29,386 bases of DNA from a virus, in UHGV virus genome UHGV-0074812; one strand, 5' to 3'. Positions 1-28,112 of this stretch are shown in pieces. The notes under the pieces are model-generated. The model searched no databases, had not been told where the DNA came from, and worked only from the letters and a program-made list of their open reading frames with translations. The position numbers and the translations under genes were made by a program. Each line of letters starts with the position of its first letter. Within the stretch, counting starts at the first letter, position 1.

Positions 1-616
1 AAAAAAGAGGCTGACCCGGTATTCTCTCAAATAAAAAACGAGCATTTTTAAATCGACTGACATCTGGAAGAGTTGATACTTTAAAAGTAAGCCCTCGCCC
101 ATCTATCTTTTCACCACCTGTTGCAACAGAAAGTAATTCTGATAGAGCTGATGTATCATCATGAACACCATCACCAATAGCCCCCCAACCTCTTACATCA
201 TAACTGTCTCTCCATCTTGCTATCTGAAGTTTTGGGTATTTATTCGCTCCATCTGTGTCTTCTAATTGCTGCCGTAACTGATCAGGATCATACTTCAGCA
301 CATTAGGAAAATAGAACTGCTGCACACCGTACGCATCATAAACAGCCATAGAATGGCCCTGTACAGTAACGAATTTGGCAATCTGTCCGTTATATACCGG
401 ATATCCAGCAGCGTTAATGATGATTGGTTGAGAAACAGGAACGTGAGAGCCATCTTCGTTCTCTACATAAACCTGAATCTGGTTTTCAGGATTTACAGGG
501 TCAGTGTCAATTTTTCCTATATAAATTTTGCCATTGGCTACGGCTTTAAAAGAACGAGCCATAGTGAAGAGTTGCGAAGGCATCGATACGATCACATTGG
601 CTGTAATGTCTGTCAT
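1..616 (-). CDS. Tailspike protein, N-terminal ~205 aa only (gene continues beyond window start); P22 gp9-type head-binding domain followed by a non-P22 receptor-binding domain
   Basis: Reverse translation from ATG at 616 gives [58 protein letters not shown]..., the conserved head-binding domain of P22/Sf6/HK620 tailspikes; GGAG RBS 9 nt upstream; downstream part ([16 protein letters not shown]) looks like start of a beta-helix enzyme domain different from P22 endorhamnosidase. Confidence 0.8.
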
Positions 617-672
617 TTAATTTGCTCCAGATACAAGGAATCGCCGCAGCATGGCTACGGTGAATTTTGGGC

Positions 673-696
673 ATAAAAAAACCCAGCCGAAGCTGG
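673..696 (-). terminator. Rho-independent terminator between ant and tailspike (hairpin cccagc-cgaa-gctggg followed by U-run on minus-strand transcript)
   Basis: Perfect 6-bp stem at 681-696 with A7 run at 674-680 on plus strand (= U-run 3' of hairpin on minus strand). Confidence 0.6.
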
Positions 697-716
697 GTCG
701 TTGCGTTGGTTATCTG

Positions 717-1607
717 TCAGTAGTTATGTACTGAAGGAGGTAATTCTTTATTCTTAAGTCTCATCCATGCGGAAAGATTCGTTGGTCCGTCTGGCTCATT
801 GATATCAACATCTCGTGAGTGATTGATTAAAACGTCTCTCGCTATATCGATAATACGGGAGAACTCATAACCGCAGTCATGACATCTGCCGGAATAGTTC
901 GATTGAATTTGTTTCAGCGCCGGATACAGTTCGCGGAATAATGCCTGTGAACGGTTGGCATAATCCCATAGCCATACAAGGCTGTTTGCTTCTTTTGCAG
1001 AAAGCTCGTTTGCTTTCTTCTCTTGTTTGCCGATGAACTCGCCTTCAAGCACTACCCTGTGGATGTACTCTACGGCCAGCGGGATTTGTTCAATTGAAAG
1101 TTCATCAATGCTGTCAATACCAAAACGCTGATGAACCATATTGTATGCATCGTCATAGCGAAGTCCTTTCTTTCCTACCAGCATGTTTACTGCATCGCGT
1201 AGCGGTGTGCGTTCAGCTACTGAAGTTTTACCGCCAATAGTCTTCCTCTCTTGTGTGGCAGTAACCATTGCGTCATATGCACGGATAACCTTCAGCGCAA
1301 ATGCTGCGCTAATCCACATGGCGTAGGAGTAAACAAGCTCCTTGCACACGTAGGTTCCACCATATCGACCTTTCTTAGAAATGACGGGATTCTTATTCTG
1401 CATATCCGCAGAATTAAAAATTTCATTAATCAATTCAATAGTTTCATTTCTACGCATGAAGAAAGCTGGCTGATGTTTTTCCTCCTTTCCAGACGCTACA
1501 TGAAGGTCATTAAGCGAGTAACGCCCCTCTGAATCCATATGAATCTTGACGTCAGAAATGATGATGCTATTAGTGCAATTTACAGTTGACTTTGCTAAGC
1601 TTGACAT
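717..1607 (-). CDS. ant: Antirepressor Ant (KilA-N domain plus ANT/KilAC domain), ~296 aa
   Basis: ORF track 717..1673; likely true start ATG at 1607 (MSSLAKS..., GAGG 10 nt upstream). N-terminal [36 protein letters not shown] resembles KilA-N; position downstream of arc and upstream of tailspike matches P22 immI. Confidence 0.75.
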
Positions 1608-1619
1608 ATCAATAATACC

Positions 1620-1690
1620 TCGTAAGTTTTGTTGATACCGAAGCCCTGACTGTTCCCGCAGTTGGGGCTTCACTGTTTTTGTAAGTCACT
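1620..1690 (+). ncRNA. Candidate sar-like antisense RNA opposite the ant translation-initiation region (hypothetical)
   Basis: Plus-strand intrinsic terminator (stem gaagccc / gggcttc, 1637-1668, then ctgttttt) lies antisense to the arc-orf73-ant transcript just upstream of the ant RBS; P22 is known to make a ~68-nt sar RNA in the equivalent place. Promoter not confidently identified (weak TTGACA/TTGACT candidates at 1586-1606). Confidence 0.3.
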
Positions 1691-1891
1691 GTAGCTATAA
1701 AGCCACTGACCACTCATTTTTGATTTGATTGACTCTACTGAGTCACGGCAAGGAATGATTCCGCCTGACATCATTCTGATCTCCGTAAATTCACCACTCC
1801 TTATCGATTCAATGCCATCAATGTTAACTAAAGATTTACCTCTACCAAGTGCATTCTCATAGCCAATCTCATCAACCTCAATAAACCTCAT
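1670..1891 (-). CDS. Hypothetical 73-aa protein inserted between arc and ant
   Basis: [47 protein letters not shown]...; ATG overlaps the arc stop (ATGA at 1888-1891), GAGGGG 9 nt upstream; no family recognised. Confidence 0.5.
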
Positions 1892-2046
1892 ACCGTTATC
1901 CCCTCTCTCTTCAGGCTGTCCAACACTCGCTTGTAAATCTCAGAGTTAACAGATCGCCCGTTCTCTTCAGCTACCTTGCGCACCAAATCCAATACTTCTT
2001 TAGGCCACCGCAAATTGAACTGAGGCATTTTTCTTGCACCTTGCAT
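1888..2046 (-). CDS. arc: Arc repressor (ribbon-helix-helix), 52 aa; not in the ORF track because it is under 60 aa
   Basis: Manual reverse translation: [52 protein letters not shown], near-identical in pattern to P22 Arc (MKGMSKMPQFNLRWPREVLDLVRKVAEENGRSVNSEIYQRV...); GGAG 6 nt upstream of ATG at 2046. Confidence 0.85.
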   Translation of the reverse strand: MQGARKMPQFNLRWPKEVLDLVRKVAEENGRSVNSEIYKRVLDSLKREGITV

Positions 2047-2139
2047 ATTCAACTCCATTTCACTCATTGATAGTACCGTACTACTATTGAAAGCGTACTA
2101 CTACCGTTCTAGCATGTCAACAAATAAAAGGAGAACGAC
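2047..2139. promoter_or_regulatory. Divergent immI control region (Pant/Pmnt with Arc and Mnt operator-like palindromes)
   Basis: Intergenic region between divergent arc (-) and mnt (+); contains palindrome TAGTA-ccg-TACTA and repeated GTACTACTA motifs at about 2070-2106. Confidence 0.5.
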
Positions 2140-2382
2140 GTGGCTAGAAATGATCCACAATTCAACGTAAGAATGCCTGATGAGATAAAACAGCAACTTA
2201 CGCATATTGCTGCAACAAATCGCCGCTCGATAAACGCAGAGATTATTTCAGCTATCGAACTATGGATAAAAATTCATAAAGGGCAGCTAATACCTTCAAG
2301 TAGTCGAATCCTGACAAAGTCTGAGCAAGAGGCGTTTGATGTAGCTATTGATGTGTTAAAACGTGTAAGAGATGGAGGATAA
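2140..2382 (+). CDS. mnt: Mnt-like repressor (Arc/MetJ ribbon-helix-helix family), GTG start
   Basis: MARNDPQFNVRMPDEIKQQL... parallels P22 Mnt N-terminus (MARDDPHFNFRMP...); AAAGGAG RBS upstream of GTG at 2140; divergent from arc as in P22. Confidence 0.8.
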   Translation: MARNDPQFNVRMPDEIKQQLTHIAATNRRSINAEIISAIELWIKIHKGQLIPSSSRILTKSEQEAFDVAIDVLKRVRDGG

Positions 2383-2384
2383 CC

Positions 2385-2618
2385 ATGGAGCAACAACAAG
2401 GGTCGCCATTATCATTGATTATTATGGTGATTTTTTTCGTTTTTATCTTTTTTATACCTGCGTTAAAAATATCCAAAAAGGCCGGTTTTGACTGGAAGAT
2501 GGCTGTATGTTTAACAATCCCTGGCTTTAACGTGGTGGCGTGGCTCGCGCTTGCGTTCATGGATTGGCCAATTCACAAGTATCTACCAAAAGATGTGAAT
2601 CGTAAGGATGCAAAATGA
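2385..2618 (+). CDS. Hypothetical small membrane protein (77 aa, two predicted transmembrane helices)
   Basis: Strong GGAGG RBS 8 nt upstream of ATG; hydrophobic stretches LSLIIMVIFFVFIFFIPAL and VCLTIPGFNVVAWLALAF; immediately downstream of mnt on same strand. Confidence 0.6.
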   Translation: MEQQQGSPLSLIIMVIFFVFIFFIPALKISKKAGFDWKMAVCLTIPGFNVVAWLALAFMDWPIHKYLPKDVNRKDAK

Positions 2619-2824
2619 ATAAAAAACAGCTTATTAAGTCAAAAACGTCAAGCAAGGAAGAATTAGAGAAGGAGCTAAACTCCCTGAAATATGCTCTGTG
2701 TCTGGTTTACTCAAGACTGCCAATGGAAGATAAAAACGCCATTTACAATGAAATGATTAGCAGCCTTGATTTTAACGATAGAGACCTAGCATCCCACCTC
2801 AACAGCTTCCGCGTCCCTGAGTAA
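2615..2824 (+). CDS. Hypothetical 69-aa protein, translationally coupled to upstream membrane protein
   Basis: ATGA start/stop overlap at 2615-2618, AAGGA RBS; no recognisable family. Confidence 0.5.
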   Translation: MNKKQLIKSKTSSKEELEKELNSLKYALCLVYSRLPMEDKNAIYNEMISSLDFNDRDLASHLNSFRVPE

Positions 2825-2984
2825 TTCTGTTGCGGATTTGCTTCTTGCGGTGGTTTAAGCTGGAGAGCTTGGCTTCTGCTTCTGATATTTGCGCATCTAG
2901 ATCTTTAAGCTCAAGATCTGAAAGTCGCTGGTCAAGCAGGGTTTGATTCAACTCAATGTTGTTCAGACGTTCTTCTATGGTCAT
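2799..2984 (-). CDS. Hypothetical 61-aa coiled-coil protein
   Basis: Strong AAGGAG RBS 7 nt upstream of ATG at 2984; heptad-like sequence (LSDLELKDLDAQISEAEAKLSSL); converges on and overlaps the 3' end of the plus-strand ORF by 26 nt, so one of the two may be spurious. Confidence 0.4.
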   Translation of the reverse strand: MTIEERLNNIELNQTLLDQRLSDLELKDLDAQISEAEAKLSSLNHRKKQIRNRITQGRGSC

Positions 2985-2996
2985 GATTACTCCTTA

Positions 2997-3022
2997 TAAA
3001 AAACCCACCTGACGGTGGGTTT
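2997..3022 (-). terminator. Intrinsic terminator hairpin (cccacc-tgac-ggtggg) flanked by A-run and T-run; strongest in the minus direction
   Basis: Perfect stem 3004-3009/3014-3019; on the minus strand the hairpin is followed by UUUUUUUAUAAGGAG, i.e. terminator directly abutting the RBS of the 61-aa ORF. Confidence 0.6.
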
Positions 3023-3319
3023 CATAGTTAGTTTGGGACCGGACTTCTCCATTGAAAAATAAGAGGTTTTTTGAATTTTTCTAGCAAAAATGGATCAACA
3101 AAATCAGCCATATAATTCGTATTTAGAAAACGATCTACATTCCTCACATGCTCACCGATTCCTGCACATCAACGCCAAGTTTTGATGCAGGCGTTGCCAT
3201 TCTGGAAAGTCTCTACAAAACACAATTGTACCGCTCTCAAAGAGCGGAACTAGCATCTTTGGTACTTTTCCAATGTTAACTTTTTTCATGGTATCCTGCG
3301 TAAAACTAAGGAGGTTGGT

Positions 3320-3742
3320 GTGTTTGGTATATTAACGAGAAGCAAGATAAAAAAATTAAGGGCAGAACTCGCCGAAACACAAAAACTGGCTTCACATTTT
3401 TACAAAATGAAATACGACGCTGAAGAGCGTGCATTCGTTGAGTTATGCGATTTATCTATTCGTATGGGAGTAGAGCCAGATGTAGCGGCAAAAACTCAAC
3501 AAGGCATTGATATACTTGCAGATGTTGTTTTAAACAGGCAATATGCGTTTTATCTAAACGAGAAGGCCATTCAGATTTACTCGCAAATCTTCCTCCTGGA
3601 AAAAAGAAGAGGAACTCACGATCGAGAAGAGTGGTTAAATGAAGTTGTTAAAAAATCTGGCTGGGAAGTTGTTTCATCAGAACTACCTCTTATTTGTGCT
3701 GATTTAATCGAAGAGGCAAAAGAGCGCCTATCCGATGGCTAG
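3320..3742 (+). CDS. Hypothetical 140-aa soluble protein in accessory island (GTG start)
   Basis: GGAGG RBS 5 nt upstream of GTG at 3320; preceded by ~300 bp AT-rich non-coding DNA; opposite orientation to flanking late genes; no recognisable family. Confidence 0.65.
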   Translation: MFGILTRSKIKKLRAELAETQKLASHFYKMKYDAEERAFVELCDLSIRMGVEPDVAAKTQQGIDILADVVLNRQYAFYLNEKAIQIYSQIFLLEKRRGTHDREEWLNEVVKKSGWEVVSSELPLICADLIEEAKERLSDG

Positions 3743-3766
3743 ACGAATCCATCCGTGGATTACTAA

Positions 3767-5923
3767 TTACTCCTGTGCCATTCCGCTTAGCGATGCCACA
3801 ATTCCAGCTCTTGCTAAACGCTGGAACTCTTCGTTTCCTAGTGCCTCGCGTATTGCTTTTACGGCGGCCTTATTTGCCATAAATCTGCGTTCCGCCGCCG
3901 CTAATGCACCATCACTTGCCCCAACCTTAACTGCCTTTGTTGCCTCTTGAACAGCCTTTTCAATAGCGTAACGACCACTGCGGGATGCAGCTAACTTTTC
4001 TATCGTCCCTTTAGCTATAGATCCAGAAACAGCCCCTACAACACCGCCAACAATCCCTCCACCAGTAGTACCAACAATAGCCCCTGATGTTGAATTGCCT
4101 ATTGCATTGAGAACTGTCATGACAGCTTTTGGCAGTCCTTGCTCAAGAGAGTTAATTGCCGGTATAGAGCGCCCCGTATGCTCTACATATCGCAGTGGTC
4201 TGGTTGCTGCTCTGGCAAGGTCGCTGTATGCCCTAGCAATCCTACCCATTTCTGGCGAGTGCCTACTAATGGCAGTAATGTTCTGCGGCGTAAGGATCGA
4301 CGCTATATGGAATACGCCAGCAGACTCTGATTTACCGCCACGCACCCCTTGCGATACCGCATCTTGTAATATTGATGCAATTGCAGGAGATCGCTCAGAC
4401 TCTGGCAGCGCGCCAATAATCTGATGAAACTTTCCTGTCCCACTTTTTGATGAATTTTGCAAGGCTTTAATACCATCAGTGACTAACTGATCAGTTGCAA
4501 GGTTTCTAAACGCTGCTTCAGCCTGTTCTTGTGCTGTAAATCTTGCTTTTGACAGATCATTAGCTTTTTGCCAGTCATCAAGAAAACCGCCATTTTGAGC
4601 CATTATGCGCATATCTTCCGTTGCTGCATCACGAAGCTCCGCCATGCGCCTTGCCGTATTTGCCTCACCAGACCTTATATACTTCTGCTCAGCGTCAGAA
4701 AGTTTGCTTCGCCATGCCTTCATGGCATCAAACGTGATTCCTTTTTTACCAGTTTTAGCATAAGCAGATGCAAATTGTTTCATCTCAGGAGTTAGCGGCA
4801 TACCAGCCAAAATATCACCCTGAATTGTAGCGTTCAGGTTTGACATTCTGGCCTTTGCGTCAGGCATCGTGGAGCGGACGCTATCCCATGCTTCCTTTTC
4901 TGAGTTCTTCATTTTATCAATACTTGCTAAAACCCTTTGTTTTATGGCTGCACTTTTTTCTGATGCAGATCCAGCCTCAGCACCAAGTTCATCAAGTGCT
5001 GAGTGGAATTTCGACTGTATTTCACTAAACGCCCTAGTATGTGCATCCTGAACAATTCCTGGTTCGGATGCCAATATCCCTTCGGCTTGTGCAATTCCAC
5101 GACTTCCAGATCGCATTCCTGGTGTTAATGCGTTTATATCAATTCCAGCAGACTCAGCAGCTTTTGCTACATCTTCGGACACATTAGCGGCCTGACTGGC
5201 AATTGACTGACGCCCAGCACCTGACTTTGCCATCCTGGAAACATCATTAGCAGAATTCAGTGCTGCACCACCAAGAGCCTGTGAAACTCTTGGCGCAATA
5301 ACGCGCCCGACACCTGAAAGAACGCCTTGAGCACCAATATTGATACCACCGTTAATGGCAGCATTTTGTGCAAAGTCGCCCTCCTGATTTGCAGCATCAG
5401 CAAGAGAACCGGCAATCATGTTTCCTGCGGAACCGATGTCTCCTGCGAGCTTTGCTGGCGTTCCAGCAGCTTTTGCTGCTGTGCCAATTGGCAGGAGATA
5501 CCCACCAATTGTTTCACCGGCTTGCGCGTAAGGGTCTGTCGGTCGATCGACTGGACGATAGACATCATCCAAAACCTTGGGGCCACCAAGCCCCTGGCTG
5601 ATTGCATTAATCAGACTTGCGCCACCCTGCAATACGTCAAATGGTATGTTTACCAGACCACGACCAGCCTGTTCAGCAATTTGCCCTGCACTTTGACCAC
5701 CTGTGAGCCAATCACCAGCTTGTTGCATCAATGATGGTTCTTCTTTCTGCTGCTGAGGCGGAGGGTATGCTGCATAAAACTGATCTCTTGCTTCAGCCCA
5801 TTTGTCACCAGCCTTAGGGGCAACAACCTCATCAAAATATTGCGCTTGAGCCTGTGCTTTCTGTTCTTCAGTTAACGCCTGATACTGTGGAGAAGCGATA
5901 ACATCTTTCCATGCTTTAGCCAT
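3767..5923 (-). CDS. Ejection/internal virion protein, gp16-like (718 aa)
   Basis: Position last in the gp7-gp20-gp16 ejection-protein block; Ala/Gly/Gln-rich low-complexity sequence typical of these proteins. Confidence 0.7.
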
Positions 5924-7272
5924 TAATCACCCCATAAAGACGAGAAACCGGACTTATTGCTGTCGCTTCCTGATTTTCGCTCACTAACATATGTGTCATA
6001 ACCTGATGAACTATATCCCATTGATTCAGCCTCCCTTGCTGCAACCTTTTGAAATACAGAATATTGCGATCGGATTTCAGATAACTGTTTTCTGACGACC
6101 TCTTCAGGCTGTGTTATATCGAGTTTCGCGATCAGGTTTTCCAGTTTTTGGCCTTCAGCATTGGAGAGGCTACCCATACCTCGCATAGTCTGCACGTTCT
6201 GGACAAACGCACCCGACTTTAATTCTTCTATCGCATTACGGTTTGCAAGCCCTTCAGCACTTGTGAAGCCATCTATATTTCTTCCTTCGAAGCGACCGAT
6301 ACCTTCAAGCTCCTTCTTACCAAGCAAAGAATCAATTTTCTCTATCCCTCGCTCACCAGTAATCAACGCATTGTTGTAATTATTGTTGCCATCAAGCCAT
6401 CTCTTAGCCTGAGACATTCTGGCTGACGTTGCAGCTTTACCGGTTAGCGGATCAATTCCCGTCGCTGCTATCTGTGAGTTAAGAGACAAAACATCCATAT
6501 CCTGAAGTTGTCCTGCTCTTTCAAGGGCCGCCTGTGACTGCTTAAACACATACTTGTCGTGATTCAGTCTTGCCATTTGAGCCTTATAGGAAAGATCCTG
6601 CCCCCTAATAGCCCTCGCATTCGTCATGTCATTATTGCGAATGGTTTCGTTAATTCTTTGCTGCTCCTGCTGGCGACCAACCATCTTATCCTGAACAGCA
6701 AACGCCTTTTCTGGTCCAAGCGCACCGAGAGACATAGTAGTCAGCATGTGTGATAGCTGCTCTGGATTCTGAATACCTGTCTGAATCATCCAGTCAGCAT
6801 TCGCGCCAACGCGATTTAACCTATCCTTGTTGTCAGTAATGAATTTACTGTAGGCTTCCGGCCCCTGAGAAAGAGCGACGTTAGCCCTCATGGCTAAATC
6901 GCCCATATCGTTGCGTTGCTGCTCATTAAGACCGGAAAATGCCTGTTGTGCCTGTGCAACAAACGCTGGATTTTCCTGGGCAAACTTAAATAGTCCCGAT
7001 GGATCACCAGAAGCCCATGCATCAGCGTGAACCTTATTGAACGCATTAATCGCTTTCTGTTGCTGTTCCTGCTTATAAATATCAGCAACTCCAGCCAGAC
7101 CACGTAACGCGGTCAGACCAACGTTATTTGCACCTGAGCGAGCCAACTCATTGTTTTCGCGGATCAGACCAAGCGTTGCGTTAATGTCGCTTGCTTTTGG
7201 CGCATTCTCATTTTGCGCACCAATGCCAGCCAGAAAACCACCAGAATTAATACCCTGTTGCCACGTAGCCAT
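5923..7272 (-). CDS. Ejection/internal virion protein, gp20-like (449 aa)
   Basis: Synteny between gp7 and gp16; size close to P22 gp20. Confidence 0.7.
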
Positions 7273-7282
7273 TGATTACCCC

Positions 7283-7975
7283 TTAAAACAACGAGCCAAG
7301 CAGACCAAGACCAGCACCGATACCAGCACCCCACGGAGTTGATAGCTCGAGAGCACTGGCTATGCCACCACCCAAAAGCGCACCGGATGCAGCACCACTA
7401 ACCCCCTGCTGCAATGCTGACGGTCGGTTGGCGTTTGCCGCAGCCAGCGCCGCGCTTTGCTGCGAAATCTGACTCATGTTGTTGGCATATGTCTGCCCGG
7501 CGTTTGCCTGACCTTGCAGTGCGCCAAGACCTATGTTTGCCAGATTCTGGTAGTTGTTCATCTGACCAGACAGCCACTGCTGACCAAGCGTTGGTGCGAT
7601 TGTTGCTAACTGATTACCGGTTGCAGTGGAACCCAATCCACCTGTTGCTTCCGCTGCCGCCAGACTCTGATAGCGAGCCTGACCAGCAAGATCTTTGTAC
7701 TGCTGAGAGTTGTAATACTGGTTTAGCGCCTGACCTTGCCCCTCCAGAGACGATAAGTTCTCGAGGCTGCCGACATACTTATCAGCCAGAGGAGTAAACG
7801 GCTTCAGGTTATTCATGATGGTGTTGAACTGCTGATTTTGCAGGTCTGCGGCATACTTCTGAGCTTCTGCTGCATACTTTGCGCTTTTATCAGAGCTGCC
7901 ACCTTTCCCACCTTTTTCAGGGCAATAAGGTTCCTCGCCGCGCAGTTTTCTGCCCAGCTTAAATGCATATAACAT
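7283..7975 (-). CDS. Ejection protein gp7-like (230 aa)
   Basis: Size and position match P22 gp7 (229 aa); Gly/Ala/Gln-rich C-terminus. Confidence 0.75.
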   Translation of the reverse strand: MLYAFKLGRKLRGEEPYCPEKGGKGGSSDKSAKYAAEAQKYAADLQNQQFNTIMNNLKPFTPLADKYVGSLENLSSLEGQGQALNQYYNSQQYKDLAGQARYQSLAAAEATGGLGSTATGNQLATIAPTLGQQWLSGQMNNYQNLANIGLGALQGQANAGQTYANNMSQISQQSAALAAANANRPSALQQGVSGAASGALLGGGIASALELSTPWGAGIGAGLGLLGSLF

Positions 7976-7977
7976 GG

Positions 7978-8433
7978 CTATCTCCCGTGATTCAGGAAGT
8001 CGATTAGTTCTTCGCGTGTGGCGCTGTAAAATGTCACGTCATCCACGCCTTTGAAGTATTTCTTGATGGTTCCTACTCGCTTAAGGCCAATCATTGCGCA
8101 GTACATCTGACCGTGGCGGAATTTGCGTGCGGCGAACGATGTGACGCACTGAACGGTGGTGTTAGTCAGAATGTATCGCCAGAACGCCAGCCCTATTTCC
8201 TTGCTGAAGCCGCGAATCTCTGGCAGGTACATGGCGTGGCAATCGAATGTAAGCGGCTGAATCTCCTGATAGTAAACAATGCCGCCAAACTGACCGTGCA
8301 CGTTCACCTCAAAGTAACGGCAATCAGGTTTGTAGTCGTATCCATCACCGTTGTTGCTCCCGGCGATGATGTCAGGGTGATTTCCTACTGCTTCGATCAG
8401 GTCGATGTTTCGCGTTGGTTTGAATGTAATCAT
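7978..8433 (-). CDS. Tail/virion protein gp14-like (151 aa)
   Basis: Synteny directly downstream of tail needle gene. Confidence 0.7.
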   Translation of the reverse strand: MITFKPTRNIDLIEAVGNHPDIIAGSNNGDGYDYKPDCRYFEVNVHGQFGGIVYYQEIQPLTFDCHAMYLPEIRGFSKEIGLAFWRYILTNTTVQCVTSFAARKFRHGQMYCAMIGLKRVGTIKKYFKGVDDVTFYSATREELIDFLNHGR

Positions 8434-9134
8434 CAGTCAATCAGCCCATGTAATCTAAGTGCTGTTTCAAGCGCCAGAATACGCTGCCGCGCCTGCTCCA
8501 AACCTGTAGCGATAGCTGCGACTTCGGATTGTGTGTACGTAGTGCCGACCGTGTATGACTGGTTAGCGTTGAATGAGCCAAGAAGTGGTGTGCCTGTGGC
8601 CGCTGTCCATCCGGTCTGCCTTGCTCCAACGACCTGAATTCCATCAACTGAATATGATGTTTTTACATCCAGCGGTGACGCAAGAGACTGCGATTCTGTT
8701 ACGGTTTTCGATACGTAATCACTCTTAATGTCAGATATATCGCTTTCTACGCCATCCAGTCTTTGGTCAACAGTGACCAGATGCGCCTGAATATCGATAA
8801 CCTCATCCAGCAAGTAATCAACATCGCTACGCAGTACAACTATCTTCCCTTCGGCGGTTGTTAACCTGACCTCAAGGAGATTTATCGCTTTTGTGTTTGC
8901 GGTGATTCTTGCATCGTGGTCAGCCAGTTCGACATCCTGTTCATCGTTTTTCACCTGAGCATCGTAAGCGCCCTGACCAGCCTGATTTGCTTTCCCGGCA
9001 ATTGCGCCGACATCAGCCCCCTGATTAATGACATACAGCAGGTAAGACTGGCTGAATATATTGCGTGGAAGGATTGATGTATCGAGCCGCGTCGCCTGCA
9101 CAATAACAGGGGTGTTGAGATTCGAATCAGCCAT
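8433..9134 (-). CDS. Tail needle protein gp26-like (233 aa)
   Basis: From ATG at 9134: [36 protein letters not shown]...[13 protein letters not shown], matching the P22 gp26 coiled-coil needle; ORF track start at 9236 is an upstream in-frame extension overlapping gp10. Confidence 0.85.
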
Positions 9135-19842: not shown

Positions 19843-20331
19843 CTACGCTACATGTTTAATTTTCTCTACACGTTTCCGGTTTTTAAACGCACTATCCAGA
19901 ACCGGGTAAATCATAAACAACGAGGCATTGAGGATTTCGTCAACTTCCCGACGACAGGTTGCGAGCGATGGTTTTTGAATGCGCCCGCCGCCCCGGCATA
20001 ACATCTTGCGAGGTCTTGCGACGCGATGATAGTAAGATGCAATGGCGTGCTTGGAAGAGCCGTGGGCGTAGTAGCTGAGGAGGATGCCAAAGGCTTTCTT
20101 GTCAATGTACATGACGGAATCGACGACCTGAGAAATCAACATTCCATCATCATCATTACACATTGGCCTTGTCATAACTCTTCCCGGCTCTACGCTCTCC
20201 ATGAATTTCGCTATTACGCTGCTCATGCGCTTTTCCAGGCGGCCTGAATAAACCCATGCGCCCCACAGTTCAAGCCAGCCATTCAGCCAATCGTGCTGTT
20301 CTTTGGTGAGGTTTAGTTCTCTTATGCTCAT
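19843..20331 (-). CDS. Q: Late-gene antiterminator Q-like protein (162 aa, short Q21-type candidate)
   Basis: Position between ninH and the late promoter/lysis cassette; size matches the short Q family; Cys/His-containing segments. Assignment by synteny and size, not by a remembered alignment. Confidence 0.55.
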   Translation of the reverse strand: MSIRELNLTKEQHDWLNGWLELWGAWVYSGRLEKRMSSVIAKFMESVEPGRVMTRPMCNDDDGMLISQVVDSVMYIDKKAFGILLSYYAHGSSKHAIASYYHRVARPRKMLCRGGGRIQKPSLATCRREVDEILNASLFMIYPVLDSAFKNRKRVEKIKHVA

Positions 20332-20516
20332 CGCCTTCCCTTTTTTCCTGGCGTTACCATCAGGACGCCGTTAACTATTACATGACGCTCGCCTTTGCTG
20401 TCTCGGTTGTACTTGAGCACTGTTCCTCTTGCGCAGGAAAGCATCCTCGCCACTTCGGTCTGATTGCCTCGTGTCTGGATAAGAAGCTCTAGTATCGTTT
20501 GAATTGTGGCGTTCAT
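20328..20516 (-). CDS. ninH: NinH (62 aa, HTH)
   Basis: ...GNQTEVARMLSCARGTVLKYNRDSKGERHVIVNGVLMV closely parallels lambda NinH (...GNQTEVARRLKCSRGTVRKY...). Confidence 0.8.
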   Translation of the reverse strand: MNATIQTILELLIQTRGNQTEVARMLSCARGTVLKYNRDSKGERHVIVNGVLMVTPGKKGRR

Positions 20517-20875
20517 ACGTTCTCCAGTTCGGTGATTTTTATTCCAAGCCTTCCGCCTGGTACTTTCACGCCACGAATTACGCGAATGTCATCGAATTGC
20601 TCGTCGTCTTCCGCAAATCCGGCGTGGATAAGGGAGTCGAGTAAACCTTTAAGAATGTTGTCGAGGTCGCGGCGGCGGGAGTCTGGAACGTCTGCGATGA
20701 CTTTGATTCGTAGTCGTGATTTGGTGAAAATGTCTAACTTGAGTTGGCGGATGATTTGCTGAACGTCTTTTCGGTATTTCTGGCCTTTATCGCTGATGTA
20801 GTATTGGCTTCCCCGTCTTCGCCAGTAGGTGTTCACCGACGGCGGGTATGGAAGCACAAACTGATATTCGTTCAT
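20513..20875 (-). CDS. rusA: Holliday-junction resolvase RusA (120 aa)
   Basis: MNEYQFVLPYPPSVNTYWRRRG...DVPDSRRRDLDNILKGLLDSL matches RusA signature (...PDRRRRDLDN...). Confidence 0.85.
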   Translation of the reverse strand: MNEYQFVLPYPPSVNTYWRRRGSQYYISDKGQKYRKDVQQIIRQLKLDIFTKSRLRIKVIADVPDSRRRDLDNILKGLLDSLIHAGFAEDDEQFDDIRVIRGVKVPGGRLGIKITELENV

Positions 20876-21162
20876 GACTTAATCTTCCCCTCCTTCAGCA
20901 GTATCGCCTGCGTCCTGATCACGCCTTCGAGGTGGTAAAGTCTGGCGTCTTTGTTGTCGAGATTATAGGTGCGTCGGTCGATTTCATCGTGACACGCGCT
21001 ACAAGCCCATGCGCCGATCAGGTCGTCAGGCTTCATTCCCGTTCCGCAAATTCCAGCCATCCGGTAATGTGCCAGAACTGTAGTTTCAGGATTGCCATTG
21101 CATACGCCGTAAATACGTACCTGGCATTCTCTGCCGCGTGCTTCTTTGCGTAGATTAGCCAT
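20872..21162 (-). CDS. YbcO-like nin-region protein (DUF1364-type Cys-rich putative nuclease, 96 aa)
   Basis: Cys-rich 96-aa protein directly upstream of rusA, as ybcO is in DLP12-type nin regions. Confidence 0.6.
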   Translation of the reverse strand: MANLRKEARGRECQVRIYGVCNGNPETTVLAHYRMAGICGTGMKPDDLIGAWACSACHDEIDRRTYNLDNKDARLYHLEGVIRTQAILLKEGKIKS

Positions 21163-21884
21163 TAAGCAGCCTCCCCTGTTACTTTCAGCATTCCGTTATC
21201 GAGCAGCTTTCTGGTCAGCCACTGTTGACCACGCCCGGTGATTTTTGTGGTGAACGATATCTGTATTCCGTGATTTGTGTTGACCGCTGTTTCTTTCACT
21301 GTGAAATAGCCGCGATCCATATATTCCTGCATTGGCACATTGCGCCGGGAACCTGAAGCAATAAGGATTTTGTGATCGCGCATCCACGCAAACAGTTTGT
21401 TTGGACCAATTCCAACAACCTTTGCAAAGTTTCCAATCAAAATTCCGCTGGCCTCGCCAACGCGATCGGCAAACTCAACTTTAGGTGCGGCAATTGCGAG
21501 CTGGTTTTCCAGTTGCATTTTCTTCTCAGCAAGATCAGCAGCAAGGCGCAACGCTTCCGGTAGCGTTTTGGGGATATTAACCGTAGTTTCTTCAAGCTCT
21601 CGCCAACGATCAACAAGACGAGCGGTGAATTCCGGCGACAACTGGGCTACAACGACAATACTGTCTCGCTTACCTTGTTCGCCCTCAAAAACGTAAGCCT
21701 CTACGCCACGAAGTAATCCTAAGTTATTGATTTTTTCGAAAACCACCATTGGGGGATTTCGGATCACACCTCGAGCCGCCAGTCGTTCAATAGATTGTTT
21801 CACCTTGTCATGACGACTTCCCACCAACTCAGCGATTTCAATGCTTGTCATTTTGATGGCATTGCCATTTATTAACTCATTCAT
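21162..21884 (-). CDS. Rha-family regulator / antirepressor with C-terminal ANT (KilAC) domain (240 aa)
   Basis: N-terminus MTSIEIAELVGSRHDKVKQSIERL typical of phage Rha domain; C-terminal half resembles ANT/KilAC domain. Confidence 0.7.
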   Translation of the reverse strand: MNELINGNAIKMTSIEIAELVGSRHDKVKQSIERLAARGVIRNPPMVVFEKINNLGLLRGVEAYVFEGEQGKRDSIVVVAQLSPEFTARLVDRWRELEETTVNIPKTLPEALRLAADLAEKKMQLENQLAIAAPKVEFADRVGEASGILIGNFAKVVGIGPNKLFAWMRDHKILIASGSRRNVPMQEYMDRGYFTVKETAVNTNHGIQISFTTKITGRGQQWLTRKLLDNGMLKVTGEAA

Positions 21885-22053
21885 CGTCTTCTTCCTCGTA
21901 CATTGAGCTATTCGGATCGCTCATCAGTTCTGCGCAGCAGTGCTCACACACGTGAACTTCCAGCACATGCAGCTTCTGACCGCAGTTAGCGCACGTTAAA
22001 GCCCGCTCGACGCTTTCTTTCTGGTATTGAATGGATTGGGATGGACTAAGCAT
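21877..22053 (-). CDS. ninF: NinF (58 aa, Cys-rich)
   Basis: From internal Met: MLSPSQSIQYQKESVERALTCANCGQKLHVLEVHVCEHCCAELMSDPNSSM... matches lambda NinF; ORF track start at 22110 is an upstream extension. Confidence 0.8.
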   Translation of the reverse strand: MLSPSQSIQYQKESVERALTCANCGQKLHVLEVHVCEHCCAELMSDPNSSMYEEEDDE

Positions 22054-22447
22054 GGCTTTCACCATTAAAAAGTCGCTTGTAAGCATCAATATCTCGTTTT
22101 GCTTCACCAAGCTTTCGTCTTAATTCCATGTTTTCTGATTCAAGCTTTTCCATGTCTTGTTGGTATCGATCGCTGTGTTCTTTCCATGCTTTTCGATACG
22201 CCTTCATGTATGTCGTTTCGGCCTTTCTCTTTGCCTGACGAACAGCGTGATGGTTTTCTACAAACCACTCAGGGTCGTTAAATGCTGCTCTGGCGCATGT
22301 ATACCAATAATTTGTTGCCTCCCTGTTTAGCCAATAAATACTGATAAATGGCAACCGGATAGACACCATTTTTCGTTGAGACTCTTTCTCGCCGAACATG
22401 TGCCCTTTTTTGATGCTAAGGCCAAATCCAGGTTGAATTAAAAGCAT
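22046..22447 (-). CDS. Hypothetical ~133-aa protein between ninE and ninF
   Basis: ORF with AGGA RBS 8 nt upstream of ATG at 22447 (MLLIQPGF...); C-terminal coiled-coil-like region; not part of canonical lambda nin set. Confidence 0.5.
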   Translation of the reverse strand: MLLIQPGFGLSIKKGHMFGEKESQRKMVSIRLPFISIYWLNREATNYWYTCARAAFNDPEWFVENHHAVRQAKRKAETTYMKAYRKAWKEHSDRYQQDMEKLESENMELRRKLGEAKRDIDAYKRLFNGESHA

Positions 22448-22449
22448 TG

Positions 22450-22626
22450 TCATTTCCTCGCACGATGTCTTAGCCACCGGATATCCCACAGGTGAGCCGT
22501 GTAGTTGAAGGTTTTTACGTCAGATTCTTTTGGGATTGGCTTGCGTTTATTTCTGGAGCGTTTCGTTGGAAGGTATTTGCAGTTTTCGCAGATGATATCG
22601 GTGAAACTTCGTCGCTGTCGCCTCAT
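22450..22626 (-). CDS. ninE: NinE (58 aa)
   Basis: [58 protein letters not shown] matches lambda NinE. Confidence 0.85.
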
Positions 22627-23063
22627 GCCGCCCTGTCTCCCCATCTCGCTTTCCACTCCAGAGCCAGTCGCGCTTCGTCTGACCACTTAACGCCACGTTC
22701 TGTACCGAATGCCTGTATAAGCTCTAATAGCTCCGCAAATTCGCCTACCCGCATCCTGCTGGTTGACTGGCCTATTACCACAAAGCCATTCCCGGCAAGG
22801 TTAGGAACAACATCCTGCTGCTTTAATGCTGCGGTAAACACACACTTCCAGCTTTCTGCATCCAGCCAGCGACCATGCCATTCAACCTGACGCGAGACGT
22901 CACCTAAGCAGGCCCATAGCTTTCTGTTTTGGTCTAAGCTGCGGTTGCGTTCCTGAATGGTTACTACGATTGGCTTGGTTGGGTCTGGAAGGATTTGCTG
23001 TACTGCGTGAATAGCGTTTTGCTGATGTGCTGGAGATCGAATTTCAAAGGTTAGCTTTTTCAT
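22623..23063 (-). CDS. ninB: NinB (recombination mediator, 146 aa)
   Basis: [50 protein letters not shown]... matches lambda NinB; G-rich RBS upstream of ATG at 23063. Confidence 0.85.
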
Positions 23064-23079
23064 GACTTCCCTCTCCCCC

Positions 23080-23111
23080 AAATAAAAAGGCCTGCGATTA
23101 CCAGCAGGCCT
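23080..23111 (-). terminator. tR2-like intrinsic terminator between helicase gene and nin region
   Basis: Stem aggcctgc / gcaggcct (23088-23111) followed on the minus-strand transcript by UUUUAUUU; position equivalent to lambda tR2. Confidence 0.6.
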
Positions 23112-23136
23112 GTTATTAGCTCAGTGATGTAGATGG

Positions 23137-25530
23137 TCATACGTCAGCCCCTTGCGCATATCGTCTGCCACGCGCAGCAGGTGCATTTGATGCTGTGCAA
23201 ATCAGTCTGGCTTCATCCTGGTCACATGCAACAAAGTGTCCGTTGCAGAACCGCTGGTAAACCGTACCAAGTGAGCCAAAACGGTTTTTCGTCACGATGA
23301 TTTCAGCAAATGGCGCGGCGCTACTGTTCTCGTCATATACCGCTTCCCGATAGAGCATGATGATTGAGTCTGCGTCCTGCTCAATGCTTCCTGAATCACG
23401 CAAATCTGCGTTTGTCGGGCGTTTGTTTGGTCGCTTCTCAACATCGCGCGAAAGCTGACTCAGGGAGATAACAGGCGTTTTCAGGTCTTTCGCCATCGCC
23501 TTAAGGCTTCCTGAGATGTGAGCAATTGCGAGGTCGTTGCGGTCTGCTTTCGGCTTCTCAATCAGGCCAAGATAATCCGCCATGATGAGTGACAGGTTTG
23601 GATTTTCCTGTTTGTGCCGTTCTGCGATTGAGCGTATTTCTTCGACCGATAACCGCGAGGCATCGACTACCCATACATCCAAATCTGCAAGCTGACTCAT
23701 GCCGTTAGCAACACGCGCCCAGCCTTCGTCATCCATCGATGCAGGATTTCGCAGTACGCTAACCGACATCCTCCCGGCGTTGGCAATGCTTCGCTCTGCA
23801 ATCTGCAATGCGCTCATTTCCATTGAGAAAATCAATACCCCGCGCCGGACGTCAGAACCAGGAATAACGCGGCTTGCAACGCCTTCGGCAATCTTCAGCG
23901 CCAGTTCCGTATTGTGCGTAACGATGTAATCCGTTGTCACATAGAGATGGCTAGGATGGCTTACCATGATGCAGAGACACTCTTCTGGCTCAACAACTTC
24001 AACCGATTTGATACCCACACCAAGGTCGCCAAGCCTGTTAATCCCGAGATTTTTGCGTAAACGTGGTGAGTGAATTTGCTCTATCAAAGATGATGGCAAC
24101 TTCATGCTGACCATGTGTGCATCAAGTCCGTCATGCTTCTCTCCTTTGTACGTGTAAACTATTCCCGTCCTGCTGGATTCTTTGGCGGTTCCACCTAAAG
24201 ATCTAACAAGCCTTACTAATCCTTTAGCTAATTTCTGACTGGATGAACTAAAGCGGATGCATCCGGACTTCTCAACCCAGCCATCTGTCTCGAGAAGGCC
24301 AGTTAAAACACCGGTACGTATTTCTTTGCTAGCACTAAAAATTTCTGCTGGGATTTCCTTCTCGGACGCACCTTTCCCGATCATCCCAATGCCACGTAGT
24401 TTGTCCAATAGTGGGTTCTTCTGGCCTTTTTGGTTGCTTATCAAATAATCATTCTCTCCTACCTTAACCAGTCGCAGTGGTGCAATTGCATCACTCATGC
24501 GGCTCAGGACATATTCTTCCGAGTTGGTGAATTTGATGCCTTTTATCAACGAACCGTCACCAAGTAGAGCCCCAATAACCCAACCATCAAGGGGAATATT
24601 TTTACCAAAGTCTCCGGTCAAGGATGGCACTCTTATTCTTCCCTGATAACGTGTTTTTTGTAGCATCCCAGCCAGCGCATCAGTATCAACAACGCGCTTA
24701 CCAGTAAATCTTGATGATGAAATTTCCCATAAGTGGTTGTCGGCACATTTCACGCTACGTCCGTCTTCAAAGGTGACTAAATATGTGAATTTCTTCCCTT
24801 GCGGGAAGACGCCAATTACCTCCGAAGGAAGCCCGTCTATTGACGCGATGCGATCGCCAATTTTGACTTCTCCGTGAGTAGTCCAGGTGCCATCTGCAAG
24901 TAAAATCCCTTCGCTTAGCGCCATTGCTTTCCCCATACCAGGACGAGCAGCGATAATCACCAGGTCTTCCGCGTTCATCCCTCCGGTGATGGCGTCAAGT
25001 TCTTCGATTCCGGTCTTCAGGGTATCTGACTCTTCTCCGTTCCTCAGACGCCTGTCAAGCGTGTCAGTGTAGTCAGTTATGATTTCCCCTAACCGTACAG
25101 GTTTAACCTCGTCACGGGGCTTTCTGATGGCTGAAAGACGTTTTACCAGTTCATCCATCGCCTGACTCGATGCGTCGATGGTTCCGCTCTGAATTGGTTC
25201 ACGCATTTCATCCATGATTTCCAGCACCAGACGGCGGTGATAGTTATCCGCGACCATTCCGGCATATCCCTTCAGGTTTGCGGCGCTCGGGCAGTTTTTG
25301 CTGGTCATCAGGATTGACGTGAAATGCTCCTCTCCGCACGCCTCGGCAACCATCAACGCGTCGATTAGGTTTCTGTTTCGCGCCTGCTTCCGGATAACTT
25401 CGAAGGCTTTCCGGTAGAGCGGAATTGAAAACGCTTCCGGCTCAAGCGTTGCCAGAACGTCACTGGCGGTTGGAGTTAATCCACCAATCAGCAGGCCACC
25501 GATAACGCTCGCTTCGATATCCTGTCTCAT
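23137..25530 (-). CDS. Replicative DnaB-family helicase interrupted by an in-frame intein (797-aa precursor; predicted mature helicase ~458 aa)
   Basis: DnaB N-terminal domain, P-loop ...[10 protein letters not shown] then ~339 aa of intein-like sequence, then [10 protein letters not shown]... and DnaB C-terminal motifs ([33 protein letters not shown]). Confidence 0.85.
23911..24927 (-). mobile_element. Intein with LAGLIDADG homing-endonuclease domain inserted in the helicase P-loop (residues ~202-540); candidate class 3 intein (Ala1, Trp in block B, Cys in block F, Thr-His-Asn at C-terminus, Thr +1)
   Basis: Block A-like [14 protein letters not shown]; block B ..KCADNHLW; two LAGLIDADG motifs ([11 protein letters not shown] and [11 protein letters not shown]); block F ..EECLCIMV..; block G ..YIVTHN followed by Thr; removing the segment restores a contiguous GMGK-T Walker A. 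Confidence 0.7.
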
Positions 25531-26474
25531 GCAATCCCCCTGTCTGCAAACTTCCCTTCCCGAACTCCCGTTAACGAGTCTTCCCTCAGCAGGTAATCAA
25601 AATCAGCCGTCCAGCCCGTGTCGTTGTCTCCGAAGTAAAACGGCTTGGCCTGATGCACAAACGCCCTGACATACGCTCTGAAACCGTCCACATTTGGCGT
25701 TTTCAGTTGCGGGATGATTTTCTTCAGGCGGCGTTTGCGTTTCTCGTTGACCGCAACAGCGTGTGGCAGTCTGTCACCGACTTCGGTGTTGTAGGCGTTC
25801 AGGAAGGATTCGTAGTCGATTCGTTCTGCCTTGCGACGTTCAGGTTTAACCTGCCCATCGCCTCCCCCATTGGGGGGTAGGGGGGTATTATTTATATTCT
25901 TGTTAATACCTTCTTGTTCATGATGTGCGGTTGTTTGTGCGGCTTCATGTGCGCTTTCATGTGTGGCATGTACGCTGAAAGCCGCGCCATTACTGGCTTC
26001 ATCATGTGCGGCATCATGTGCGGTTGTTTGTGCGGCTTCATGTGCGGGTGAATTGTCCATTTTTTGAGCGTATTCATGGTAATTTGTGATGGTGATCACA
26101 CGCCCTTTTTGCTTCTCTCCATCAATGGAAATCATCCCCTCTTTCACAAAAACCTGAAGCATCCGCTCAACCTGATCACGGCTTGCTGGCTTGCCATGCC
26201 TGTCGCATAACTGAAGACCTAAATCAGCTGCTGTCACAACCAGTTGACCGGGTTGCAGATGCCATTCATGACCTTTGAAATTCGCTTTGTATGGCTTTCT
26301 GGCGGCATTCAGGAGAAGGTTTTCCCACAGGGTGCGAAGATAAACATCTTTCGCCCATGACTGTTTCAGAATGCTCCGGTACAACGGAATGTAACCAGTT
26401 TTCTGGTTCTCCATCCTGTTGCTCCTGCGCTCGTGTGCGGCGCTGAAATCGTAGATTTTTGCTGTATTGCTCAT
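25527..26474 (-). CDS. Replication initiator, lambda O-like N-terminal domain (315 aa)
   Basis: [17 protein letters not shown]... parallels lambda O N-terminus (MTNTAKILNFGR...); contains repetitive His/Ala linker encoded by iteron-like DNA repeats; directly upstream of the helicase gene (ATGA overlap). Confidence 0.7.
25918..26047. repeat. Iteron-like direct repeats inside the O-like gene with adjacent AT-rich tract (candidate replication origin)
   Basis: 31-bp perfect direct repeat atgtgcggttgtttgtgcggcttcatgtgcg at 25923-25953 and 26015-26045, plus at least 10 copies of the core (A)TGTGCGG; AT-rich stretch gtattatttatattcttgttaat at about 25885-25910 and G/C palindrome cccccattgggggg at 25864-25878. 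Confidence 0.55.
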
Positions 26475-26476
26475 AA

Positions 26477-26752
26477 CTACCTGCCTTGACGAAAGACCTT
26501 AAGAACATCGTTAAACTGACTTACGGATATGTCTTCTTTGAGAAGCTTTTCCAGAAATGCGTTTGGAATGAACGTATATCCCTCCTCTTTTGGTAGAGAC
26601 GGGAGCAACGCCCTCGCCTCAGCCTTCAGAAACTCAGTTCTGGCAACTTTCACAAAAGAGATTTGAGTTCTTTCATCAATGGAACGAAGGAAGCGCAAAC
26701 GCTTAGCTTCTTTGTGTGTATCAGGTGGATTAAAGCCTTTGTTTCGCATATA
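26477..26752 (-). CDS. Hypothetical ~91-aa protein between cII and the O-like gene
   Basis: Internal start MRNKGFNPPDTHKEAKRLRF... at 26752 with GAGG upstream; the longer 193-aa ORF in the track overlaps cII out of frame and is unlikely. No family recognised. Confidence 0.4.
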   Translation of the reverse strand, partial: YMRNKGFNPPDTHKEAKRLRFLRSIDERTQISFVKVARTEFLKAEARALLPSLPKEEGYTFIPNAFLEKLLKEDISVSQFNDVLKVFRQGR

Positions 26753-26771
26753 ATTACCTCGTTGGATGTTG

Positions 26772-27065
26772 TTAAAATTCCATTTGTATTTGATCAGAAC
26801 GCTCGGTTGCCGCCGGGCGTTTTTTATTGGTGAGAATCGAAGCAACTTGTCGTGCCAATCGAGCCATGTCGTCGTCGACGACACCCCATTCAAGAACAGC
26901 AAGCAGCATTGAGAACTTTGGAATCCAGTCCCTCTTCCACCTGCTGATCTGCGACTTATCAACTCCCACAGCTTCCGCTGTCTTCTCAGTTCCAAGCATT
27001 GCGATTTTGTTAAGCAACGCACTCTCGATTCGTAGAGCCTCGTTGCGTTTGTTTGCACGAACCAT
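26772..27065 (-). CDS. cII: CII transcriptional activator (lambda-type, 97 aa)
   Basis: MVRANKRNEALRIESALLNKIAMLGTEKTAEAVGVDKSQISRWKRDWIPKFSMLLAVLEWGVVDDDMARLARQVA.ILTNKKRPAATERS.QIQMEF is lambda CII nearly residue for residue as I remember it. Confidence 0.9.
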   Translation of the reverse strand: MVRANKRNEALRIESALLNKIAMLGTEKTAEAVGVDKSQISRWKRDWIPKFSMLLAVLEWGVVDDDMARLARQVASILTNKKRPAATERSDQIQMEF

Positions 27066-27124
27066 ATGTAAGTATTTCCTTAACAAATAAGAAGTTATGC
27101 GCATCAACTTATGCGCGTTGTATT

Positions 27125-27167
27125 CCCGCATTTCGGCGGGAATGAGGACCATGACTGTTAAAGAGCA
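27125..27167 (-). promoter_or_regulatory. nutR (boxA tgctctttaa and boxB hairpin cccgc-cgaaat-gcggg on minus-strand transcript)
   Basis: BoxA-like motif plus stem-loop between cro and cII; identical boxB sequence occurs in opposite orientation at nutL (28280-28295). Confidence 0.6.
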
Positions 27168-27173
27168 ATTTGC

Positions 27174-27359
27174 TTATGCCGCTTTGCGGTAAGCGCTTTC
27201 TTGATACTTCAGGGCGCCAGCTGTAACGACTTCCAGTCGATAGGCGTCTTTCTCTGGGATGACTTCCTTCCACTGAGAGACTGCTGCGTCGCTAATGCCT
27301 AACGCTTTAGCTACAGCACGCTGGGTTCCGAAGTGGTCGATAACATCTTTCTTGTACAT
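27174..27359 (-). CDS. cro: Cro repressor (P22-type, 61 aa)
   Basis: MYKKDVIDHFGTQRAVAKALGISDAAVSQWKEVIPEKDAYRLEVVTAGALKYQESAYRKAA matches P22 Cro as I remember it; divergent from c2. Confidence 0.9.
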   Translation of the reverse strand: MYKKDVIDHFGTQRAVAKALGISDAAVSQWKEVIPEKDAYRLEVVTAGALKYQESAYRKAA

Positions 27360-27439
27360 AGACTCGCTCCGAAATTAAAGAACACTTAAATTATCCACTA
27401 AAGGAATCTTAAGTCAAGTTTATTTAAGATGTCTTAACT
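27360..27439. promoter_or_regulatory. OR/PR/PRM region with P22-type operator palindromes
   Basis: TTAAG-containing palindromic sites, e.g. atttaagatgtcttaact (27422-27439), cttaagtcaagtttatttaag, cacttaaattatccactaaag; lies between divergent cro and c2. Confidence 0.65.
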
Positions 27440-28090
27440 ATGAAAACTCAATTGATGGGAGAGCGCATTCGCGCTCGGAGAAAAGAACTCAAGATCAGGC
27501 AGGCCGCACTTGGAAAGATGGTCGGCGTGTCTAATGTTGCCATATCTCAGTGGGAACGCTCTGAGACAGAGCCAAATGGAGAGAATCTTCTCGCCCTGGC
27601 TAATGCGTTGAAGTGTTCCCCTGACTATCTGATGAAAGGAGAGGAAAGTCTTTCAAACATTGCCTATCACAGTAGGCATGATCCAAGAGGGTCATACCCT
27701 CTGATTAGCTGGGTGAGCGCAGGATGCTGGATGGAAGCTGTAGAACCATATCATAAGCGTGCAATAGATAACTGGTACGATACAACCGTAGACTGTTCAG
27801 ACGATTCGTTTTGGTTGGACGTGAAGGGAGACTCAATGACGGCTCCGGCCGGTCTCAGTATCCCTGAAGGAATGATAATACTCGTCGATCCTGAAGTAGA
27901 GCCGCGTAACGGGAAACTGGTAGTTGCAAAGCTCGAAGGAGAAAACGAGGCAACTTTCAAGAAGTTAGTTATTGATGCAGGCAGGAAGTTTCTAAAACCA
28001 CTTAACCCACAATATCCGATGATCGAGATCAACGGGAACTGCAAAATCATCGGCGTAGTTGTCGATGCAAAACTAGCAAACCTTCCATAA
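27440..28090 (+). CDS. c2: C2 repressor (P22 c2 / lambda cI family, 216 aa, HTH plus LexA-like peptidase domain)
   Basis: MKTQLMGERIRARRKELKIRQAALGKMVGVSNVAISQWERSETEPNGENLLAL...DSMTAPAGLSIPEGMIILVDPEVEPRNGKLVVAKLEGENEATFKKL closely parallels P22 C2. Confidence 0.9.
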   Translation: MKTQLMGERIRARRKELKIRQAALGKMVGVSNVAISQWERSETEPNGENLLALANALKCSPDYLMKGEESLSNIAYHSRHDPRGSYPLISWVSAGCWMEAVEPYHKRAIDNWYDTTVDCSDDSFWLDVKGDSMTAPAGLSIPEGMIILVDPEVEPRNGKLVVAKLEGENEATFKKLVIDAGRKFLKPLNPQYPMIEINGNCKIIGVVVDAKLANLP

Positions 28091-28091
28091 G

Positions 28092-28112
28092 GGGGCATTC
28101 GCCCCTTTTTTT
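28092..28112 (+). terminator. Intrinsic terminator after c2 (ggggc-attc-gcccc plus T7)
   Basis: Perfect GC stem 28092-28105 followed by ttttttt. Confidence 0.7.

Follow-up and report, generated by a model that had tools for sequence, protein, structure and literature searches.

The gene fragment at the edge of viral genome UHGV-0074812 is very probably the 5' part of a CUS-3-type endosialidase tailspike gene

The window analyzed here, the whole 29,386-nt stretch of viral DNA (UHGV virus genome UHGV-0074812), holds a P22-like genome together with the start of a tailspike gene. The gene lies on the minus strand, with an ATG start codon at window positions 616-614, and translation of positions 616 to 2 yields 205 codons without a stop before the frame exits at the window edge, in agreement with an earlier note on this DNA that had described the gene as cut there. 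A Shine-Dalgarno sequence (GGAG, 625..628, minus strand), identified by direct reading of the sequence, lies 8 nt upstream of the start codon, and a terminator scan located an intrinsic terminator (680..699, minus strand) between ant and the tailspike gene, within the boundary sequence annotated as bsq1 in CUS-3; the same element is annotated as tANT in HK620. The upstream neighbor (717..1607, minus strand) encodes the antirepressor Ant, as indicated by its KilA-N and P22_AR_C Pfam domains and by the CUS-3 gene order, and is part of a P22-like immI region. The tailspike fragment itself (2..616, minus strand, codons 1-205) was assigned to a gene of the CUS-3 type and comprises three parts: a P22-type head-binding (capsid/tail-hub attachment) domain in codons 1-113 (278..616), with the pentapeptide YDPDQ at its end (aa 109-113); a linker or neck in codons 114-145 (182..277); and an endosialidase N-terminal extension domain in codons 146-205 (2..181), the remainder of which lies beyond the window. 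The two other peptide strings cited in the earlier note are present at aa 114-135 and 143-158.

The head-binding domain of P22-like tailspikes docks the spike trimer onto the P22-type tail. Residues 1-113 of the fragment match the entire Head_binding profile (PF09008, positions 1-113 of 113) with an E-value of 4.6e-67 and 223.8 bits, against a cut-off of 24, and align with two N-terminal domains of solved structure, those of Sf6 gp14 (7sg7, E 8e-67) and P22 gp9 (8tvr and 1lkt, 1e-51). These matches are far beyond chance and bear out the proposal that the first ~110 aa correspond to the capsid-binding domain of P22, Sf6 and HK620. The genomic setting is that of a tailspike gene as well, with the domain at the N-terminus of the product of the final late gene in a P22-like virion module (gp7/gp20/gp16, immI, tailspike), in a window whose gene order follows HK620, CUS-3 and Sf6 and whose structural genes are 95% identical to theirs at the nucleotide level. 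The P22 gp9, Sf6 gp14 and HK620 gp9 tailspikes have the head-binding domain in common with the fragment (aa 1-113, E 1e-46 to 8e-67), and their genes likewise follow the immI region within a P22-like late operon, but for receptor binding they carry right-handed beta-helix endoglycosidases that act on O-antigen. The resemblance to these spikes ends where the note had placed it, after the DPDQ hinge: the structural alignments to P22 (1LKT, 8TVR) and Sf6 (7SG7) stop at aa 115-118, and the DNA matches to HK620, Sf6, epsilon34 and P22-like phages stop at approximately codon 113-118.

Beyond the hinge, the linker (codons 114-145) yielded no Pfam family match. Its nucleotide sequence is 100% identical to that of CUS-3, and it is ~87-89% identical to the tailspike genes of phages Gally and vB_EcoP-683R2 until approximately codon 150. 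The stretch following DPDQ can be regarded as a mini-module of its own, common to the Gally and vB_EcoP-683R2 tailspikes, and it also matches residues 213-262 of 9vvr, the structure of an 843-aa 'Tail spike protein' that additionally matches query residues 786-911, around the C-terminal chaperone domain. Residues 146-205 match PF12218 ('N terminal extension of bacteriophage endosialidase') with an E-value of 1.2e-32 and 111.8 bits, against a cut-off of 26.3. The match covers profile positions 1-60 of 67, its missing end being due solely to the window edge. The same 60 residues align to residues 2-61 of the endosialidases endoNF of coliphage K1F (1v0e, 3gvl) and of phi92 (4hiz), with E-values of 1e-17 to 3e-18, so that both the head-binding domain and the endosialidase extension are covered by solved structures at E <= 1e-17. 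In a homologue search with the 205-aa fragment, almost all matches were partial proteins at contig ends; among these, the 278-aa partial homologue P0001 (99% identity), the cluster representative of 378 member sequences, carries the endosialidase beta-propeller family PF12217.

Among phages, CUS-3 (CP000711) gives the best match along the full length of the fragment, at 100% coverage and 97.3% nucleotide identity, and the protein encoded by the fragment is identical to CUS-3 siaK1 (ABQ88383 / CAJ29292) at 203 of 205 residues. The CUS-3 endosialidase tailspike and prophage were reportedly described by Stummeyer et al. in 2006 and King et al. in 2007. In the CUS-3 GenBank record, siaK1 is annotated as 'endosialidase tailspike protein' with endo-alpha-sialidase activity under evidence code IDA (PMID 16689790), an activity also listed for the CUS-3 protein elsewhere (PMC5380687). 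CUS-3 itself is a P22-like prophage found in K1 strains (PMC3046976). Its tailspike has the N-terminal domain common to HK620, Sf6 and P22, yet carries an endosialidase catalytic domain that it shares with K1F (PMC5380687, citing Stummeyer et al. 2006). The window and CUS-3 agree in gene order and in the upstream terminator, ribosome-binding site and ant gene, but the other prophage sequence is only ~95% identical, with 60% of the window's first 25 kb covered.

The differences between the two tailspike genes are unevenly distributed. All 18 coding differences fall in codons 20-98, where 16 are synonymous and two are not (P43T and V98A), and the remaining 323 nt, codon 99 up to the window edge, match CUS-3 at every position. 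Over nucleotides 1-300 of the coding sequence, the HK620-like phage HZ41 lies closer to the window, with 10 mismatches, than CUS-3 does, with 18. This pattern points to a site of recombination within the head-binding domain and, on this comparison, to a putative allele in which an HK620-like 5' part is joined to CUS-3-identical sequence from codon 99 onwards. A pattern search for this allele-specific junction (head-binding allele plus endosialidase segment) returned 0 matches in the genome-contig and viral-contig collections. A search of E. coli genomes with window positions 1-3200 was dominated by the immI region, such that genomes carrying other tailspikes were matched, and the search was hence repeated with the 616 nt alone. 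In this search, 155 of 5,426 complete E. coli genomes presented a match spanning at least 80% of the 616 nt, the top matches listed being ~97% identical; the matching genomes include the K1 strains UTI89, IHE3034, NU14, PMV-1 and APEC O18.

Contexts in which the gene continues past codon 205 were collected by looking up the window's own gp16 and Ant proteins in public contigs. Four distinct public contexts were found to be identical to the window over 616 of 616 nt: L138, L139 (also handled as L004), L140 (L005) and L147 (L007). All four continue as an endosialidase, with the beta-propeller (PF12217), beta-barrel (PF12195), stalk (PF12219) and chaperone (PF13884) families. L004 is 100% identical to window positions 1-15923, and its record, analyzed as L012, differs from window positions 13137-29386 by two SNPs only, both in ninB. 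The gene is intact in L007, encoding a 981-aa protein identical to CUS-3 at 978 residues, and in L138, encoding 980 aa. In the full-length L007 protein, residues 145-817 align to endoNF (1v0e/3gvl) with an E-value of 0 and 1048 bits, and residues 698-979 to 3gw6, the structure of the chaperone domain. The residues H350, R549, E581, R596 and R647, which are key catalytic residues of endoNF (PMC12632334), are conserved in the relatives at positions 250, 456, 488, 503 and 554. The propeller carrying these five residues and the inserted PF12195 barrel lie beyond the window and are present and fully conserved in L004, L007 and CUS-3 (the first two identical to the window over the first 616 nt, the last 97% identical). 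Likewise beyond the window, the PF12219 stalk and the PF13884 chaperone/autoprotease with its cleavage serine (...NPVVTS/DG...) are intact in L007, L138 and CUS-3. The architecture of the relatives, from N-terminal extension through beta-propeller, beta-barrel and stalk to chaperone domain, is thus that of endoNF of coliphage K1F (1V0E, 3GVL, 3GW6) and of the phi92 enzyme (4HIZ), with conserved catalytic residues and an E-value of 0 over 670 residues for the full-length relative. These enzymes are homologous yet clearly diverged, their overlap with the window fragment amounting to 60 residues, and K1F attaches its spike via a T7-fibre-like N-terminal domain rather than a P22 head-binding domain (PMC5380687).

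The locus order in the relatives (gp16, arc/mnt, ant, tailspike, neuO with AAGACTC repeats, integrase, tRNA-Arg(CCT)) is the CUS-3 arrangement. The neuO, int and tRNA-Arg(CCT) genes are seen only past the window edge, in the near-identical loci L004, L005 and L007. In L138 (10241-12053), an intact gene for a 980-aa endosialidase is followed by a lysis cassette of holin, GH19 endolysin and DUF2514 genes instead of neuO and integrase, and its downstream context is therefore unlike that of CUS-3.

Taken together, these observations make it very probable that window positions 616..2 contain the first 205 codons of the tailspike of a CUS-3-like prophage of E. coli K1, a member of the P22 family (Lederbergvirus), and that the protein is a three-part chimera. 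In the proposed mechanism, the head-binding domain (aa 1-113) would dock the trimeric spike on the P22-type tail hub, and the short linker would join it to the third part, a predicted endosialidase (endo-N-acetylneuraminidase, GH58) of which the N-terminal extension (aa 146-205) alone falls within the window. The remainder, as read from the contigs with identical 616 nt, would consist of a six-bladed beta-propeller with an inserted beta-barrel, a triple-beta-helix stalk and a C-terminal intramolecular chaperone domain. The latter is expected to drive folding of the trimer and then to cleave itself off, as described for chaperone domains of this type, which act in folding and trimerization before self-cleavage (PMC12632334; PMC3742443). 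[quoted passage not shown] Since the window includes no more than 60 residues of endosialidase-specific sequence, the catalytic part has been deduced from other assemblies, and we infer that the remainder in the source genome would be the same, intact and enzymatically active.

The receptor assignment of the earlier note has to be revised in part. Its proposal that receptor specificity differs from that of P22 holds, since the receptor-binding module is unrelated to the P22 endorhamnosidase and host specificity should accordingly differ from that of P22. The O-antigen receptor that it named does not fit a module recognized by the endosialidase family PF12218 (E 1.2e-32). Given that all four contigs with identical 616 nt continue as a CUS-3-type endosialidase, the predicted receptor is the K1 capsule (alpha-2,8 polysialic acid), which is a K antigen and not an O-antigen. 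Nor is the spike novel, as the note had implied. A search against known tailspikes returned, within the limits of the window, 203/205 aa identity to the characterized CUS-3 tailspike, and full-length identity to CUS-3 reaches 978/981 in a contig with the identical 616 nt. The protein is already known, in a known type of prophage, and there is nothing new in its mechanism or family.

A different question is whether the gene works in the source genome. In L004, a 1310-bp IS3-family element (18049-19358, beyond the window edge) is inserted after endosialidase codon 914, flanked by a 3-bp GAC target duplication. Its inverted repeats begin TGAACCGCCCCGGG, it encodes a 108-aa OrfA, and from the size of the element and the lengths of its ORFs we take it to be IS629-like. 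As a result, 12 IS-encoded residues take the place of the final 67 aa of the chaperone domain. In L005, which has 2 mismatches to the window, the same IS occupies another site in the tailspike gene, at L005 16917 and approximately codon 537. L005 carries further IS copies in the prophage, one of them in the coat-gene region. Judged by these insertions, L004 and L005, two of the four contexts that share the 616 nt with the window, probably carry a non-functional spike, so the source copy may lack a working one as well. It is conceivable, though on balance doubtful, that the endosialidase of the source genome is a pseudogene disrupted by this IS3-family, IS629-like insertion, in which case the prophage would produce no infectious K1-specific virions and would persist carrying cargo such as neuO. 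L004 is the only contig 100% identical to window positions 1-15923, L005 is nearly so, and the part lost in L004 matters for folding: the chaperone-domain loop T977-H1026 of the K1F enzyme is reported as essential, and endosialidases lacking the chaperone (ICA) domain apparently fail to fold or trimerize (PMC3742443; PMC12632334). Against this stand L007 and L138, which match the 616 nt just as completely and have intact genes of 981 and 980 aa; moreover, with 2 SNPs separating it from the L004 record, the window is not provably that genome, and no disruption is visible inside the window itself. The corresponding view of the whole element, as a degraded and domesticated CUS-3-like prophage with its endosialidase knocked out in the chaperone domain by an IS629-like insertion, after the example of L004 and L005 as its closest public relatives, and neuO retained with 32-33 heptamers, is entertained only as a tentative possibility.

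The neuO gene, a capsule O-acetyltransferase cargo gene, carries a poly-psi tract of AAGACTC heptamers that is unusually long in L004 and L005 (32-33 copies). The tract comprises 32 copies in L004 (19725-19948), 33 in L005 (19724-19954), 8 in L007 (18412-18467) and 19 in CUS-3 (L001, 8189-8321). Expression of neuO is phase-ON when the repeat number is divisible by 3 (PMC13001214), and among these four copy numbers this applies to 33 alone. A phase-ON state with 33 repeats fits the 293-aa Hexapep product, which was called in L005 only.

The idea of module exchange raised in the earlier note is well documented, and it is plainly visible in the neighborhood of the window's own genes. Identical Ant and gp16 proteins are followed elsewhere by at least eight non-endosialidase tailspikes of 478-901 aa (L002, L003, L006, L141-L146), among them an HK620-type spike and spikes of 478, 603, 618, 640, 662, 743 and 901 aa. 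In every spike gene whose start coincides with that of the window's gene, nucleotide similarity breaks down immediately behind YDPDQ, at approximately codon 113-116. Two of the alternative spikes present a Peptidase_S74 chaperone match only, and several of their loci sit at another chromosomal site, adjoined by PBP, aminotransferase and biotin synthase genes and not by argW. This mosaicism allows for a further recombination event, in which the endosialidase extension has been kept and the sequence beyond codon 205 replaced by another catalytic or receptor-binding module: mosaicism is pronounced among P22-like tailspikes, at least eight other spike modules are found attached to the same Ant/gp16 cassette, spikes that are not endosialidases contain the linker (aa 114-150) too, and the window ends inside the gene, with the rest unseen. 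Such an arrangement is nevertheless very improbable, since 4/4 public contexts with 616/616 identity continue as endosialidase, P0001 (99% identity, 278 aa) also carries PF12217, and PF12218 combined with another catalytic domain was not found in any spike with this head-binding domain.

The interpretation put forward in the earlier note, that the module after DPDQ is the start of another right-handed beta-helix glycanase directed at the O-antigen of another serotype, has in its favor a motif at aa 143-158 resembling the N-terminal cap motif of many beta-helix depolymerases, weak PDB matches to a beta-1,3-glucanase (5m5z, E 1.5e-4, 25 residues) and to mannuronan epimerases and the beta-helix tailspike 4oj5 (E 0.3-0.9), and the presence of PF12708 in many other tailspikes with the same head-binding domain, but its probability is negligible, given that PF12708 (Pectate_lyase_3) has no match to the fragment at E<=0.01 in a Pfam profile search versus 1e-32 for PF12218, that endosialidase structures match 60 residues at E about 1e-17, that identity to the CUS-3 endosialidase reaches 99% in amino acids and 100% in nucleotides from codon 99, and that the gene runs on into a beta-propeller sialidase in every contig sharing the 616 nt. 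Alignments to solved beta-helix glycanases did not extend beyond the GDGxxDDT cap motif, consisting of 25-30-residue matches only with E-values of 1.5e-4 and worse, and the reading was rejected on the PF12218 score, the lack of a PF12708 match and the motif-only nature of these alignments. The family matched at aa 146-205 is PF12218, and the catalytic domain of the relatives is the six-bladed beta-propeller sialidase PF12217.

Identification as a CUS-3-like prophage implies a K1-encapsulated (polysialic acid) E. coli host, and the K1 capsule serves as a lineage marker for extraintestinal pathogenic clones, ST95 among them. The tailspike constitutes a textbook case of receptor-binding module exchange on a conserved P22-type adaptor, and it matters little beyond annotation.

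Two further features of the window were observed outside the tailspike region. Over 29.4 kb, the window differs from GCA_964047705.1 only at positions 22812 and 22827, which lie 15 nt apart in ninB (minus strand). A pattern scan with the window's 51-nt ninB allele returned more than 120 exact matches in IMG/VR lambdoid contigs, and the frequency of the allele in these contigs suggests that the two SNPs may represent a small gene-conversion patch, and not two independent mutations. Window positions 23137-25530 (minus strand) encode a 797-aa DnaB-type replicative helicase in which the DnaB_C domain is split in two, with LAGLIDADG_3 and Hom_end matches at aa about 393-454. By eye, the insert interrupts the Walker A motif (ARPGMGK / AMALSEG...IVTHN / TELALK), and its boundaries, with an Ala at the start and HN at the end before a +1 Thr, are consistent with an intein harboring a homing endonuclease, presumably resembling the class-3-like inteins of phage helicases. 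The public collection lists an identical 797-aa protein in 192 blocks.
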